The position numbers were made by a program, and so were the translations under genes. A stretch of DNA of 64,000 nt, from positions 10,299 to 74,298 of the forward strand of contig CAZFYQ010000005.1 of NCBI GenBank assembly GCA_964523905.1, read 5' to 3'. This document shows, one piece after another, positions 9,929 through 41,621 of the stretch. Positions within the stretch are counted from its first letter, which is position 1. Every line of letters starts with the position of its first letter. A model generated the notes under the pieces. The model saw nothing but the letters and a program-made list of their open reading frames with translations. It did not search any database and was not told the origin of the DNA. This DNA is from an uncultured Gammaproteobacteria bacterium. GTDB taxonomy: Bacteria; Patescibacteriota; Microgenomatia; Daviesbacterales; UBA10151.

Positions 9929-11545
9929 GTGTCTACTCTTTTCAAAAAACCTTTTTATATCTTAATTCTCACCGCTTTGGTTTTTGTAACTTATGTCAAC
10001 TCTTTAAATAACGTCTTTTTATCAGATGATTTAGCAGAGATTGTTAATAATCCTCATGTGACCGACCTGAGTTATCAAATCACCACTCACCCAACTGGTT
10101 TTATCAGGCCACTGATTTATTGGCTCTCTATTAGTATTGCCGGATTAAATCCGTTTTTAATTAGACTAACCAATATTTTATTCCATCTAGGTTCAGTTTG
10201 GCTGATTTTTGCGATTATTACTAAACTGCATCAGTCGAAAAAGTTGGCCTTTTTTGTGGCATCTTTGTTTGCAGTACATCCCGCATATGCTGAAGCAGTG
10301 GTGTGGATTTCCGGTGGCATGTATGCCCAATATGCCTTCTTTTTCCTGTTATCTTTTTGGTTTTACATTTACTCCCCTGCAAAAAAATATTATCTATTAT
10401 CTATTACCAGTTATCTATTATCCTTCATGTCCCATCCGGTCATGCCAGAAGCGCTTTGGCTGGTGTTCCCATTGTATGAGTTGGCATATGGTAATTTTAA
10501 GAAAAATTGGTTAAAGGCTTTACCGTTTTTAATTCTGGCTGTTTGCTATGTGTTTGTAAATTTCTCTGTTTTACCTGAGCGCGAAACTACTTTGCAAACC
10601 GTACACTATCAGGAAAAAGGCATTGATAACCCGTTTATGCTAATTCCGGTGGCCATTGGCTCCTACTTTGAGCTGTTGGTTTTCCCTAAAGATTTAACTT
10701 TATATCATTCTGAGCTCAATTTTGGCCCATTTGTATTTTCTATAATTGTGGCAATCACTTTAGCCTTTATCGGGGCCCTTTTTTGGGCTTTTAAGAAAAA
10801 CAAGCCGATATTCTTCTGGCTGAGCTTTTTCTGGCTGGCTTTGGCTCCGACCTTGACGCCATTTCGGCTGAACTGGATTGTGGCAGAACGATATTTATAT
10901 TTATCATCCATTGGCATTTTTGTGGCTGTGGGACTGGCTTTAGGTCCTTTATTAAAGAAAAAACAGTACCAGACTATTGCAACTGCGATTTTAGTGTTTA
11001 TTTTAATTGCGCTTTCCGTCCGAACTATTTTCCGCAATATTGACTGGGCTACTGAAGATAACCTGTGGATTGCCACTGGTAAAACCTCTCCATCTTCTCC
11101 TAATACACATAATAATCTGGGAGATGTTTACGGTAGACATGGTGATAAACAAGCTGCTTTACGCGAATTTCAAACAGCCATTGATTTAAAGCCGGACTAT
11201 GGTGATGCTTATCATAATTTGGCTAATACCTATAGAGAACTGGGTCAAATGGATAAAGCCTTAGAAAATTACCAAAATGCCATTAAATATAACCCCGGCC
11301 TTTGGCAGTCTTATCAAAATATAGCGGCCATCTACTTCCAAGCTAAAATGTATGATAAAGCCTTAGCCAACATCCAGCAGGCCATTAAAATTAATCCCAA
11401 TAATCTGAATTTAGTAGATAATTTAGGCTTGATTTATTTAACCATGGGTCAAAAAGATCAGGCCAAACAAGTTTTCCAAGCTGTCTTAAACGCCGCACCG
11501 CAAAACCAATTCGCCCAACAAGGCCTAACAGCAGCTTCCAAATGA
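9929..11545 (+). CDS. polytopic membrane protein with C-terminal TPR repeats (TMTC/DUF1736-like putative glycosyltransferase)
   Basis: About 10 TM helices, then three or more TPR-like repeats (AYHNLANTYRELGQMDKALENYQNAIKYNP...). The stop codon abuts tRNA-Thr. Confidence 0.7.
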   Translation: MSTLFKKPFYILILTALVFVTYVNSLNNVFLSDDLAEIVNNPHVTDLSYQITTHPTGFIRPLIYWLSISIAGLNPFLIRLTNILFHLGSVWLIFAIITKLHQSKKLAFFVASLFAVHPAYAEAVVWISGGMYAQYAFFFLLSFWFYIYSPAKKYYLLSITSYLLSFMSHPVMPEALWLVFPLYELAYGNFKKNWLKALPFLILAVCYVFVNFSVLPERETTLQTVHYQEKGIDNPFMLIPVAIGSYFELLVFPKDLTLYHSELNFGPFVFSIIVAITLAFIGALFWAFKKNKPIFFWLSFFWLALAPTLTPFRLNWIVAERYLYLSSIGIFVAVGLALGPLLKKKQYQTIATAILVFILIALSVRTIFRNIDWATEDNLWIATGKTSPSSPNTHNNLGDVYGRHGDKQAALREFQTAIDLKPDYGDAYHNLANTYRELGQMDKALENYQNAIKYNPGLWQSYQNIAAIYFQAKMYDKALANIQQAIKINPNNLNLVDNLGLIYLTMGQKDQAKQVFQAVLNAAPQNQFAQQGLTAASK

Positions 11546-20271: not shown

Positions 20272-20334
20272 ATTGTACCATCCTTGTCACTATGCTTGAC
20301 TTTGCATCATTAGGATCTATAATCTACAGGTAAT

Positions 20335-20781
20335 ATGGCTGCAACTCCAGAAACATATCAAGAAACACGTGCACATGATTTGGGCTTCAAGGATGAAAAG
20401 GGACAGCCGGTGCTGGGCGTGGGTAAAAGATATACAGAAGATAGTCTTTATCGTTTTATGTATTTGGCTGAAGAGGCTCTCAAACCCGCAAGAATCGTAG
20501 TTACCCTAGGTCTCAAAGAAATAGACACCCCACATGGTGAAGATAAATTACAGTTTACTACTATTACTAAAATTGAGGGCATTTCAATAGAAGAAGCGGC
20601 TTCAAGATTAATGGTGCTAAGAGAAAGTGGACCAAGTTGGGCATTTAAACCAATTCGAAGGACTGGTGACCAAATTGATTATGCGTCTACTACAATTGGT
20701 CCCAATGATACATTAGCTCTATTTAACTTCGATACTGAAGAATTTACACACCTTGTGCCAGCAGCAACAACTCTAAAATAG
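20335..20781 (+). CDS. hypothetical protein
   Basis: 148-aa ORF. GC is noticeably higher than its neighbours. A REP-like element follows immediately. Confidence 0.45.
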   Translation: MAATPETYQETRAHDLGFKDEKGQPVLGVGKRYTEDSLYRFMYLAEEALKPARIVVTLGLKEIDTPHGEDKLQFTTITKIEGISIEEAASRLMVLRESGPSWAFKPIRRTGDQIDYASTTIGPNDTLALFNFDTEEFTHLVPAATTLK

Positions 20782-20820
20782 CTTCCAATCCCAGGGGTTG
20801 AATACGTTCAAACCTCAGGA
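20780..20820 (+). repeat. REP-like 41-nt element, copy A
   Basis: agcttccaatcccaggggttgaatacgttcaaacctcagga, with central palindrome TTGAA-TACG-TTCAA. It is 40/41 identical to copy C. Confidence 0.65.
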
Positions 20821-20874
20821 TTTTTATTAGCCAAACTTTTATGATGATTTTCACCGGACTTAGGCGCTAAATAT

Positions 20875-20903
20875 TTGACAGTTATCCTATAAGCTGATAG
20901 AAT
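20875..20903 (+). promoter_or_regulatory. sigma70-like promoter TTGACA-N17-TAGAAT upstream of the 20913 ORF
   Basis: ttgaca (20875-20880), 17-nt spacer, tagaat (20898-20903). Confidence 0.4.
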
Positions 20904-20912
20904 CGGGGCAAT

Positions 20913-21338
20913 ATGGCAGAACGTGAGCGAACAGGTTCAAAATTATCTCAGGACACAAACCCGGCAGCTGAATTAAGACAGAGGATTAAAGAGGCTGCTT
21001 TAGCTAACCCGGAAATTGTGGCCTTGGCTGCTGATGCTTGGTTTGAAGGAGAATCTACAATTGAGGTAGGGAACGGAGGAGATAGATTAACTATTGATTC
21101 AGAACCACACCCTTTTGGTATTGGTCGAGTACTAAGAGTGACCAATGTAATTGACACCATGAATGGGTATAGACAGATGGAGCTTTTCGTGGCCACAAAC
21201 AACCGACCAAACAGTACATATGATTCAGTAATATTTAGCAAACCCGGACTTCCAGATGAAACTGATAATCCAGCTGCAATAGAAGGTGGGAATGATATAT
21301 TATTTGAAATGGAACGATTCCAACCTCGCGAACAGTAA
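20913..21338 (+). CDS. hypothetical protein
   Basis: 141-aa ORF bracketed by REP-like copies A and B in direct orientation. Confidence 0.45.
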   Translation: MAERERTGSKLSQDTNPAAELRQRIKEAALANPEIVALAADAWFEGESTIEVGNGGDRLTIDSEPHPFGIGRVLRVTNVIDTMNGYRQMELFVATNNRPNSTYDSVIFSKPGLPDETDNPAAIEGGNDILFEMERFQPREQ

Positions 21339-21343
21339 ATAGC

Positions 21344-21384
21344 AGCTTCCAACCCCGGGTGTTGAATACGTTCAAACCCCAGGA
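21344..21384 (+). repeat. REP-like 41-nt element, copy B
   Basis: agcttccaaccccgggtgttgaatacgttcaaaccccagga. It is 37/41 identical to copy A and sits 2 nt from the tRNA-Val 3' end. Confidence 0.65.
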
Positions 21385-21386
21385 TG

Positions 21387-21458
21387 TGGATACTGTAGGG
21401 ATTGGACCTACGACCTCCTCGATGTGAACGAGGCGCTCTACCACTGAGCTAAGTATCC
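21387..21458 (-). tRNA. tRNA-Val (anticodon CAC)
   Basis: Reverse complement gives GGATACT-TA-GCTC-AGTGGTA-GAGC-G-CCTCG-TTCACAT-CGAGG-AGGTC-GTAGG-TCCAATC-CCTAC-AGTATCC-A. Confidence 0.85.
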
Positions 21459-27531: not shown

Positions 27532-27556
27532 AGGGAAATTTTAACAGATAACTAAC

Positions 27557-27847
27557 CTAGACACTAGCAGTTTCTAGAGGAACAGAGGGCAATGGAAGTC
27601 TCAATCTCCCAACCACAAAATTGCATTGCTGCCGTACACCACTCTCCATTATTCGAGATAATCTGGCATCAGCTGTTGCAAGTTGCGCCTTTTTCCAGAT
27701 TAAATTTCCGAGTGGTGTAAATATATCATTATCTGCTGCTCTCCAACCCATATAGCGATAATTGCGCTCAATCTGAGCACTGGAAACTTCATGTTGATAT
27801 CTCTTCAAAGAAGCAGGCACAGTCTCACTTTCTATACCAATTTTCAT
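27557..27847 (-). CDS. hypothetical small protein (low confidence)
   Basis: 96-aa ORF between ileS and ftsZ. GC is higher than the surrounding sequence. No motif recognised. Confidence 0.3.
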   Translation of the reverse strand: MKIGIESETVPASLKRYQHEVSSAQIERNYRYMGWRAADNDIFTPLGNLIWKKAQLATADARLSRIMESGVRQQCNFVVGRLRLPLPSVPLETASV

Positions 27848-27849
27848 TT

Positions 27850-40171: not shown

Positions 40172-40762
40172 ATGAAAAATACTGAAAGATTGATAGAGAT
40201 ATTAGGCCTGATTGGTATTCCACTACTGGGATCGACGTTACTAATAAATCTCCTTGCTCTTAATATCGCTCCATATGTAGGCTTATCAATCCTTTTTGGG
40301 ATCAGTACAATTATTAAAACAAAGAAATGGTCAACATATACAAAATTACTTGTAATAATCTTGGCACTATTTATATTCAATATAACCCCCTATTTCCGAC
40401 CAGGGGACTATACAATCTTTGCTGGTGGGGCTGTGCTATTTGGATGCATCAATCAGTCTCCTAACTCTTTAGGATTAGGATGGCCAGCAGCATATGTAAA
40501 ATATTCACTTGAAAGAGGAACCATTTTAGTTGGTTCATCTAGTCTTAAATCTAACTGTGAATATAAAAAAATTGATACAGGGACATTTTTTCCACAAAAT
40601 CCCCAATGGTTAATTTTTGATGTTCTTTTCTCACTTTCATGGTTACCTTTATTCTATAGTATTTTTAAAGGGGGTTCTAACACCAAACTTATTTACTTTC
40701 TGTTAAGTCCTTTGTTTATAATTGTTTTAATAAAAACAATATTCCTCTTCCATATATTATAA
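40172..40762 (+). CDS. hypothetical polytopic membrane protein
   Basis: 196 aa with about 5 TM helices. It is on the opposite strand inside the dcw cluster. Confidence 0.4.
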   Translation: MKNTERLIEILGLIGIPLLGSTLLINLLALNIAPYVGLSILFGISTIIKTKKWSTYTKLLVIILALFIFNITPYFRPGDYTIFAGGAVLFGCINQSPNSLGLGWPAAYVKYSLERGTILVGSSSLKSNCEYKKIDTGTFFPQNPQWLIFDVLFSLSWLPLFYSIFKGGSNTKLIYFLLSPLFIIVLIKTIFLFHIL

Positions 40763-40835: not shown

Positions 40836-40876
40836 AGCTTCCAACCCCAGGGGTTGAATACGTTCAAACCTCAGGA
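40836..40876 (+). repeat. REP-like 41-nt element, copy C, 20 nt downstream of the transposase stop
   Basis: agcttccaaccccaggggttgaatacgttcaaacctcagga. Confidence 0.65.
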
Positions 40877-40895: not shown

Positions 40896-41567
40896 TTAAA
40901 TCAAATGCCTGATTTGCGCTAAAGTTCTCTGGTATTCAGCCTGATCGAAAACAAACTCCTTATATTTATCCTCGTTTCCTATTAAACCTAAGATTAAATC
41001 ACTATTAATGAACTGGTAAACTCCTGAGCTCTTTTTTATGTAGTTTTTATATGAAGACCAAATATAATCTTCTAAACTATCTATCTTTACAAGGTAGTCG
41101 GTGGATGGATTCAAATGTATATACCTACTAACATGTAGCAGTTGTTCATCCGTAACAATTCTGACTCCCTTAAACATTGGTTGAAATAATGGGCCGCTCC
41201 TTTCAGATTTAATATTGAAATATTTGGCATATCCATTTTGTAAATTACTGATAAATTTAGCTATACCCTTTTCACTTATTTGTTTTAGGAGAAAATGAAA
41301 ATGATTATTCATTAAGCAGAAAGCCAAAATTTTTATATGAATATCACCTTCCTTCTGTAGACCAGCAAAAATCTTTTCCCTATCCTCTCTGGGAATTTTT
41401 TTAAAATGCGAAAAACTAACCGGGGTATTTTGAAAACGATAATAATCTATTAACTCAATAAAGCGTTGGAAATCTCTTGGTGTCGAAAAAATGGGTAAAC
41501 GAGCAACTCCTCTATTAAATACATGATAAATTTGATCCTGAGCTAGCGGTGTGCTCCTGTAAGGCAT
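40896..41567 (-). CDS. IS200/IS605-like Y1 (HUH) transposase, RAYT/COG1943-like
   Basis: N-terminal YHVFNRGVARLPIFSTPRDFQRFIELI, HUH motif NNHFHFLL and catalytic-Tyr region SRYIHLNPS (RAYT Y-I-H-x-N-P). Start chosen at the ATG at 41565-41567; the ORF track extends to 41690 through REP-related sequence. Confidence 0.65.
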   Translation of the reverse strand: MPYRSTPLAQDQIYHVFNRGVARLPIFSTPRDFQRFIELIDYYRFQNTPVSFSHFKKIPREDREKIFAGLQKEGDIHIKILAFCLMNNHFHFLLKQISEKGIAKFISNLQNGYAKYFNIKSERSGPLFQPMFKGVRIVTDEQLLHVSRYIHLNPSTDYLVKIDSLEDYIWSSYKNYIKKSSGVYQFINSDLILGLIGNEDKYKEFVFDQAEYQRTLAQIRHLI

Positions 41568-41588
41568 TAATTCAATCTTATCCTTAGG

Positions 41589-41621
41589 TTGGAAGCTAGT
41601 CAACACCGGGTGTTGGAAGCC
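41589..41621 (-). repeat. inverted partial REP copies in the transposase 5' flank
   Basis: ttggaagct (41589-41597) and caacaccgggtgttggaagcc (41601-41621) are the reverse complement of the REP 5' half (agcttccaaccccgggtgttg) with 3 changes. They are inverted relative to copy C. Confidence 0.5.

Follow-up and report, generated by a model that had tools for sequence, protein, structure and literature searches.

A 41-nucleotide repeat in a 64,000-nucleotide stretch of a Daviesbacterales genome (contig CAZFYQ010000005.1 of assembly GCA_964523905.1, positions 10,299 to 74,298 of the forward strand; hereafter the window) brackets a gene for a HUH/Y1 tyrosine-transposase-like protein and also occurs dispersed at the 3' ends of other genes. 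We put the probability at about 0.7 that a domesticated HUH/Y1 transposase acting on single-strand DNA has this element as its cognate terminal repeat, that the enzyme comes from the TIRYT or subclass 2.1 branch of the RAYT (REP-associated tyrosine transposase) superfamily, and that gene and repeats together constitute a REPtron or TIRtron. Repetitive extragenic palindromic (REP) elements and their RAYTs are the best-studied case of a transposase and miniature repeats that persist vertically in bacterial genomes, with most of the known examples in Proteobacteria and Cyanobacteria. A literature search for papers linking REP, RAYT or TIRYT with Patescibacteria or the Candidate Phyla Radiation (CPR) found nothing relevant. 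Our verdict is that the window carries a low-copy system of the REP/RAYT type in Patescibacteria, and that the bias of its repeat towards tRNA trailers is the most novel point.

A conserved repeat and the gene that it brackets

The first-pass annotation of the window had described three plus-strand copies of the repeat with 37 to 40 of 41 positions identical. A search of the window with its degenerate 41-mer returns exactly these three matches, all on the plus strand, and none in 100 dinucleotide-preserving shuffles, which confirms copy A at 20780..20820, copy B at 21344..21384 and copy C at 40836..40876 (pairwise identities 40/41 for A and C, 38/41 for B and C, and 37/41 for A and B). The palindrome TTGAA-TACG-TTCAA, likewise reported for each copy, is part of an 18-nt core, GTTGAATACGTTCAAACC, that is identical in all three and absent from the rest of the window even at 3 mismatches. 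All three copies do lie just past gene 3' ends, as the coordinates of open reading frames (ORFs) and tRNA genes show. The first two bases of copy A are the AG of the TAG stop of the ORF at 20335-20781. Copy B starts 5 nt past the stop of the ORF at 20913-21338; at its other end, 1 nt separates it from the 3' end of tRNA-Val(cac), which is encoded on the minus strand (21386..21458). Copy C sits between the stops of the plus-strand ORF at 40172-40762, from which it is 73 nt away, and of the Y1 gene on the minus strand (40896..41567; 223 aa), from which it is separated by 19 nt. The similarity among the three copies ends exactly at the 41-nt borders, their flanks share nothing further, and the ORFs beside copies A and B are unrelated to each other; the copies are therefore discrete units, and not the products of a segmental duplication.

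Read in the direction of the Y1 gene, copy C is the reverse complement of the element (TCCTGAGG...TTGGAAGCT), placed 3' of the stop codon. A further copy, in forward orientation relative to the gene, lies upstream of it at 41581..41621 (minus strand) and ends 13 nt before the ATG. At this place two inverted half-copies had been annotated, and GCTTCCAAC does occur twice there on the minus strand (41588-41596 and 41612-41620). These stretches are not partial copies, however, but parts of one full-length, diverged copy that is identical to the consensus at 32/41 positions, is found by nhmmer with an E-value of 1.3e-4 over model positions 2-41, and can be placed without gaps in a 41-column alignment. 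The impression of two partial copies arises from an internal direct half-repeat of the element (GCTTCCAACCCCAGG / CGTTCAAACCTCAGG).

The same bracket recurs in related genomes. We compared orthologous loci from seven other assemblies, namely L018 (JACPKL01), L019, L021, L023/L024, L026, L034 and the 1.7-kb L017 (the source itself). In each of them a forward copy precedes the ATG by about 13-60 nt, and a second copy, in reverse complement, starts 0-16 nt past the stop; the window has the same arrangement with its copies at 40836-40876 (plus) and 41581-41621 (minus). The earlier suggestion that REP-like elements flank a RAYT-like gene in inverted orientation thus holds for the window and for seven orthologous loci. 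Moreover, a paralogue with 50% identity in L028 (16108-16782) is bracketed by its own variant of the repeat, CACACACC-N-GGTGTGTG.

An ungapped alignment over 41 columns of 20 copies from nine sources (the window and eight related loci) has invariant columns A8, A9, C12, C13, G15, G16, G18, T19, T20, T24, T28, T29, A32, A33 and C34, and the motif AAC[AC]CCNGG[GT]GTT is confined to such copies in 233 kb of related loci. The conserved structure in this alignment is a palindrome in the 5' part of the element. Its columns 7-12 can pair with columns 16-21 in 91.7% of cases over the 20 copies, compared with 24-60% in slid controls, and exchanges from C-G to A-T at 11/17 and at 7/21 constitute covariation above all shuffles. 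The hairpin TTGAA-TACG-TTCAA was considered as an alternative and rejected. Its stem can be lengthened to 9 bp if one A is bulged out (GGGGTTGAA/TTCAAACCCC), but it is present in Daviesbacteria-type copies only, it is 81.7% paired over the 20 copies with no covariation beyond shuffles, and it is not kept in the gene-flanking copies of other genomes.

The true start of the Y1 gene is the ATG at 41567, whereas the database call P0001 begins 13 codons further upstream, at a TTG; all 30 orthologues that we aligned, which are 58-72% identical, begin with MPYR at this same ATG. Exact look-ups of the ATG-start protein and of one neighbouring gene returned no record. The protein matches the Pfam family Y1_Tnp with 31.8 bits, above the cutoff of 23, and it belongs to a family with 983 representatives of 50%-identity clusters at E<=1e-30. 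Both H89 and H91 of the HUH motif (NHFHF) and Y149, N153 and P154 (SRYIHLNP) are invariant in the 30 orthologues, and an LFQ motif and a WSS motif in the C-terminal tail are invariant or nearly so. The HUH motif together with a single catalytic tyrosine in the class-2 signature Y---NP, as listed by Quentin et al. (2018), is what characterizes the superfamily of RAYT and TnpA-REP proteins. Searches of the Protein Data Bank (PDB) by sequence were uninformative, with nothing relevant for the single sequence and only weak ISDra2 matches for a profile, and a fold search was therefore required. The AlphaFold (AF2) model has a pLDDT (predicted local distance difference test) score of 85.6 and a helical tail at residues 155-222. 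Its top Foldseek match is 4ER8_A, E. coli TnpA-REP bound to a REP hairpin (E-value 1e-5, target-normalised template modelling (TM) score 0.71), followed by the TnpA proteins of ISDra2 and IS608 with TM scores of about 0.6. The protein has intact HUH and tyrosine motifs and a predicted fold closest to that of TnpA-REP.

Within the superfamily, the sequence places the protein on the branch variously called TIRYT, Group 1 or TnpA-Y1 subclass 2.1, and not on the canonical branches with GTAG-tagged REPs. According to Quentin et al. (2018; PMC6006769), subclass 2.1 corresponds to the Group 1 RAYTs described by Bertels et al. (2017; PMC5581495) and to what Di Nocera et al. (2013; PMC3733652) call TIRYTs, and their Table 1 lists as key motifs of the subclass NH[YF]H, FQ instead of W[EQ], Y[IV]HLNP and SS, with a median length of 238 aa. 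The motifs NHFH, FQ, YIHLNP and WSS of the protein in the window, and its length of 223 aa, agree with this description.

Dispersed copies and their apparent bias towards tRNA trailers

Apart from the copies that flank Y1 genes, we find nine dispersed copies: A and B in the window, one each in L012, L013 and L014, one in L016, a diverged one at L018:15070, and one each at L019:20026 and L028:3544. Since L012, L013 and L014 belong to the same metagenome-assembled genome (MAG) as L018, the counts are two in the 64-kb window, at least four in JACPKL01, and one each in L019, L028 and L016. A scan of a genome collection (596 Gb) with the 18-nt core recovers the full element only in three Daviesbacteria matches. 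Candidatus Daviesbacteria (Microgenomates, Patescibacteria) is also the group to which the names of homologues point, as does the sole genome of a species collection with the full element. Twelve single matches of the core in unrelated phyla are about the chance expectation for an 18-mer in 596 Gb, and two matches in a viral scan are likewise put down to chance, as they lie inside phage coding sequence and show no similarity beyond the core.

Dispersed copies resemble the 3'-flank copy of the Y1 gene of their own genome more than the 5'-flank copy. Over columns 8-41, copy A is identical to its 3'-flank copy at 33/34 positions, the other window copy at 31/34 and the JACPKL01 copies at 33/34, compared with only 25-28/34 for the 5'-flank copy. 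There are also genome-specific variants, with T36 in window copies A and C and C36 in all JACPKL01 copies, pointing to copying or homogenisation within each genome. Comparison of orthologous sites shows that copies are present in some relatives and absent from others. The tRNA-Val-LepB locus is kept in L028/L029 (LepB 82% identical) and L030 (78%), yet no copy follows tRNA-Val there, and a copy behind tRNA-Gly(ccc) is present in L028 and absent from the window and L030. The within-genome similarity and these presence/absence differences together suggest that the system may be active or may have been so until recently. Once inserted, copies seem to drift, since the equivalent of copy B in L033, found at the same place beside an ORF whose product is 87% identical to ORF141, has 5/41 substitutions, among them T19 and C34, which are invariant elsewhere.

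The most novel feature of the dispersed copies is their location. Four of the nine start a short way (1-21 nt) behind the 3' end of a tRNA gene, and the four tRNAs are different: Val in the window (21344-21458 for tRNA and copy together), Arg in L013 (663-790), Lys in L019 (19931-20066) and Gly in L028 (3544-3671). The orientation is always tRNA -> TCCTGGGG...TTGGAAGCT, which is also that of the copy after the stop codon of the Y1 gene. When the analysis is restricted to loci that were not chosen via the repeat (210 kb with 20 tRNA genes), three of five copies are found no more than 25 nt past the 3' end of a tRNA gene. The probability of this is about 1e-4, even on the assumption that no more than 10% of the DNA can accept insertions. 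As the sample is small and comes from related genomes, we regard the bias as a strong lead, not as an established rule. The repeat itself does not appear to be derived from a tRNA or to belong to a known RNA family, as Rfam finds only the tRNAs. Behind another tRNA gene of the window, tRNA-Thr(cgt), the 12-mer TTGGAAGCTGCT is found 2 nt from the 3' end (11530-11541, minus strand). It is identical to the outermost 9 nt of copy B together with the 3 bases that flank the copy on that side, and the orthologous trailer in L030 differs exactly there. It could be the remnant of a lost copy or a chance occurrence, as 8 of 100 shuffles reach 2 matches at one mismatch.

Our data suggest a model for how the element is maintained. 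The Y1 protein would bind the conserved 5' palindrome, (C)AAC[C/A]CC-N-GG[G/T]GTT(G), which in single-stranded DNA is probably folded into a 6-bp hairpin. It would then use Tyr149 and the HUH metal site to nick and rejoin the DNA in the manner of TnpA-REP from E. coli and of IS608 TnpA. Occasionally, a single 41-nt unit templated on the 3'-flank copy would be copied into a new intergenic site, after which it would drift neutrally. Binding to the upstream copy may, in addition, repress the promoter of the Y1 gene itself. A promoter-like site, TTGACT-17-TAAGAT (41603-41575, minus strand), overlaps this copy; its TTGACT corresponds to positions 19-24 of the element, and its TAAGAT lies beyond the element and ends 8 nt before the ATG. 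In L018 and L019 (about 9960-10000 in each) a good -10 box is seen by eye 6-8 nt before the ATG. Such a layout might go with a transcript that has no leader and is regulated by its own product via the upstream copy. A bolder version of the model assigns to a Y1 family conserved across Patescibacteria (about 1,000 clusters at 50% identity) a small population of 41-nt single units that are inserted with a preference for tRNA trailers and in a single orientation. We consider this extension rather unlikely. If it is true, it would amount to a tRNA-gene-directed single-strand-DNA transposition system in bacteria with reduced genomes, and proteins of subclass 2.1, reported to be REP-less, would have cognate dispersed repeats after all. 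Targeting might then make use of single-stranded DNA exposed at heavily transcribed genes. Alternatively, the host might have co-opted the copies for handling the 3' ends of tRNA transcripts.

Some further observations concern the surroundings of the copies. The segment between a polysaccharide flippase gene and tRNA-Val, in which copies A and B reside, is variable among relatives. In the window (20272-21385) it holds two orphan ORFs of 148 and 141 aa, neither with a family match, each with a promoter that matches the consensus at 11/12 positions and each followed by a copy of the repeat; in L028 (8980-9860) it holds a gene with a Bro-N domain, and in L030 (9823-9862) nothing. In L033 (505-1111), copy B is followed by about 7 nt of the tRNA-Val 3' end and then by unrelated, non-coding-looking DNA with several G+C-rich hairpins, for which Rfam gives no match. 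The GC skew is negative throughout the window (1-64000; -0.03 to -0.20), and the minus strand carries the majority of the genes, so that the plus strand is probably the lagging strand across the whole window. The three full copies would then be on the same replication strand, but with n=3 this proves nothing.

A copy can also provide the stop codon of a neighbouring gene or displace it. The AG of one TAG stop (20779-20781) comes from copy A, the copy at L018:15070 holds the TAA stop of the upstream gene (15076-15078 of L018), and the copy in L016 (1987-2042) lies inside the last 18 codons of a called ORF. In two independent assemblies (L012 and L017) contigs end inside a repeat copy, as is expected for multi-copy DNA in short-read assemblies. 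The repeat thus matters for the annotation of these MAGs, because it both breaks assemblies and supplies or replaces stop codons.

Arguments against a transposase repeat and rival explanations

Several findings weigh against the interpretation of the element as the terminal repeat of a RAYT-type transposase. First, Quentin et al. (2018) found no REP-like sequences for subclass 2.1. The sole NCBIfam match of the protein, REP_Tyr_transpos, reaches 41.5 bits, below the equivalog cutoff of 80, and neither strand of the consensus contains the GT[AG]G tag (GTAG or GTGG). Second, the predicted DNA hairpins are modest, with energies of -5.9 to -9.7 kcal/mol and z-scores of -1.1 to -2.8, and four copies carry mixed combinations at 11/17, where all four combinations occur. 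Because of these mixed pairs, and because the sequences are related, the alignment does not separate a single-strand hairpin from a double-stranded site for a dimer. Third, the copy number is low, with two dispersed copies per 64 kb and three exact-core copies in the whole of JACPKL01, and the scan of a metagenome collection yielded one true copy, the one in L016. Mobility, moreover, is suggested by presence and absence only, as we obtained neither an intermediate nor a pair of filled and empty sites with alignable flanks. Finally, the strong conservation of the bracket across orthologues that are only 60-70% identical could reflect a regulatory role rather than transposition.

This last point leads to the rival that survives best, although we judge it clearly unlikely. 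It sees in the element not mobile DNA but a site for regulation or protein binding, or a signal at the RNA level (a palindromic operator, a termination or insulation signal, or a hairpin for 3'-end processing or stabilisation) that was recruited behind tRNAs, small ORFs and the Y1 gene, and that the Y1 protein or a host factor merely binds to it. The position of copies at gene 3' ends, four of them after tRNA genes in one orientation, would fit this idea, as would the conserved bracket, and the four pair combinations at 11/17 would be natural for a double-stranded palindrome with degenerate half-sites. The surroundings of copy A would fit as well, with a stop codon on one side and, on the other, TTTTT and then the near-consensus promoter of the next ORF, and so would the promoter-like site that overlaps the 5'-flank copy of the Y1 gene.

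The termination variant of this rival finds no support, and neither does the earlier proposal that the copies double as terminators. No intrinsic terminator (a G+C-rich hairpin followed by a T run) was called at any copy, and a T run follows copy A alone. Orthologous tRNA-Val and tRNA-Gly sites in relatives lack the element, as do 16 of the 20 tRNA genes in the sampled loci, which have no copy at all. In addition, copy B of L033 has decayed at some of the invariant positions, and relative to the upstream protein gene copies are found in both orientations, all of which speaks against the rival as a whole.

A second rival, which we regard as hardly probable, takes repeat, gene and repeat as an ordinary autonomous insertion sequence (IS) of the IS200 type with inverted ends, and the solitary 41-mers as deletion scars. 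That Group 1 is described as the most IS-like group of RAYTs (Bertels et al., 2017) speaks for it. So does the fact that the bracketed gene is found in different neighbourhoods, which differ among the window, L021, L023 and L026, with yet another in L018, L019 and L034. The paralogue of L028, furthermore, is located between IleRS and FtsZ, where the window has a gap of 318 nt (27532-27849) and no Y1 paralogue. On the other hand, L018, L019 and L034 share the same neighbourhood (UvrA...SecG-SBP-gene-riboflavin genes), so that the position of the gene is syntenic in three genomes. The window has a single gene copy, and the related loci (which are loci, not whole genomes) contain paralogues with 36-50% identity, including a third one in L019 (429-1106; 36%), but no near-identical duplicates. 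The protein has the Y---NP signature and not the Y---Q of IS200, the genes next to the Y1 gene have no Pfam match, and no tnpB is among them. Solo copies, moreover, have sharp 41-nt borders, are not accompanied by gene remnants, and all resemble one end only.

That the copies are remnants of attachment sites of tRNA-targeting integrative elements, or products of local segmental duplication, seems very improbable to us. Copy B and three others do abut tRNA 3' ends, the region from the flippase gene to tRNA-Val varies among relatives, and the tRNA-Val sequence of L033 breaks off after 7 nt. Yet the distances vary (1-21 nt) and four different tRNAs are involved (Val, Arg, Lys and Gly), which is hard to reconcile with an attachment site for an integrase; the element and the tRNAs have no sequence in common, there is no integrase nearby, and the Y1 gene is bracketed by the same element everywhere; segmental duplication is at odds with similarity that stops at the 41-nt borders and with unrelated flanking ORFs. 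Integron-like cassettes, consisting of ORF148 with copy A and ORF141 with copy B, were dropped because each ORF has its own near-consensus promoter, there is no integrase, and ORF141, which matches no family, has just one homologue among 5.8 billion proteins.

Relation to known systems and significance

Interpreted as the terminal repeat of a TIRYT-like transposase, the element finds its closest counterpart in the TIRtrons, which Di Nocera et al. (2013) describe as long-tailed RAYT-like genes flanked by inverted repeats that lack GTAG and form "moderately abundant" families in some genomes. The likeness to TIRtrons and subclass 2.1 extends from the protein motifs, the SS in the C-terminal tail and a length near the median to an apparently low number of gene copies per genome with paralogues that are about 36-50% identical. 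As in TIRtrons, flanking inverted repeats lie at fixed short distances, tracts are self-complementary, and families may be moderately abundant. The motif GGGGWSAS, which was reported for TIRs but is not shared by other TIRs (Di Nocera et al., 2013), does not fit the present element, whose copies read GGGGTTGA, GGTGTTGA or GGGGTTAG. Further differences are the Patescibacteria host, the bias of dispersed copies towards tRNA trailers, and the tail of the protein, which is helical in the model but in which Pfam detects no DnaA-C or helix-turn-helix (HTH) domain (Bac_DnaA_C, HTH_23 or HTH_28) at E<=0.01.

With the canonical REP and REPIN systems (E. coli TnpA-REP, 4ER8; the Pseudomonas REPINs; subclasses 2.2, 2.4 and 2.5) the element and its gene share the HUH/Y1 fold and the arrangement of an apparently single gene bracketed by inverted, palindrome-containing short repeats, further copies of which are scattered over the 3' ends of other genes. 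Paralogues differ in the repeat variant that goes with them, and copies are more alike within than between genomes. In contrast to these systems, there is no 5' GT[AG]G tag, there is a handful of copies instead of tens to hundreds, and the protein has a helical C-terminal extension of about 70 aa and stays below the NCBIfam equivalog cutoff. The inverted doublets (REPINs) considered in the first-pass annotation are not seen either, as all nine dispersed copies are singlets. The sole REPIN-like doublet is the 3' flank in L034 (10686-10740), a head-to-head dimer that shares the central palindrome and forms an imperfect palindrome of about 55 nt. Members of the IS200/IS605 family (the TnpA proteins of IS608 and ISDra2) have in common with the Y1 protein the catalytic fold and motifs and substrates that are likely to be single-strand hairpins, and the location of all window copies on one strand with respect to GC skew is a further parallel. 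They differ in having Y---Q instead of Y---NP, frequently a tnpB partner, and multiple near-identical gene copies, and in having distinct left and right hairpins, whereas the ends here are inverted copies of one sequence.

If our interpretation is true, the REP/RAYT phenomenon extends to the ultrasmall genomes of Patescibacteria, in which repeated DNA is scarce, and a Y1 subclass that had no such repeats in a large survey can be given a cognate one. The element would also provide a compact and strongly conserved 41-nt substrate with a clear palindrome for the biochemistry of an uncharacterised HUH enzyme. The bias towards tRNA trailers, if it is upheld in complete genomes, would be a new target preference for this class of enzymes.

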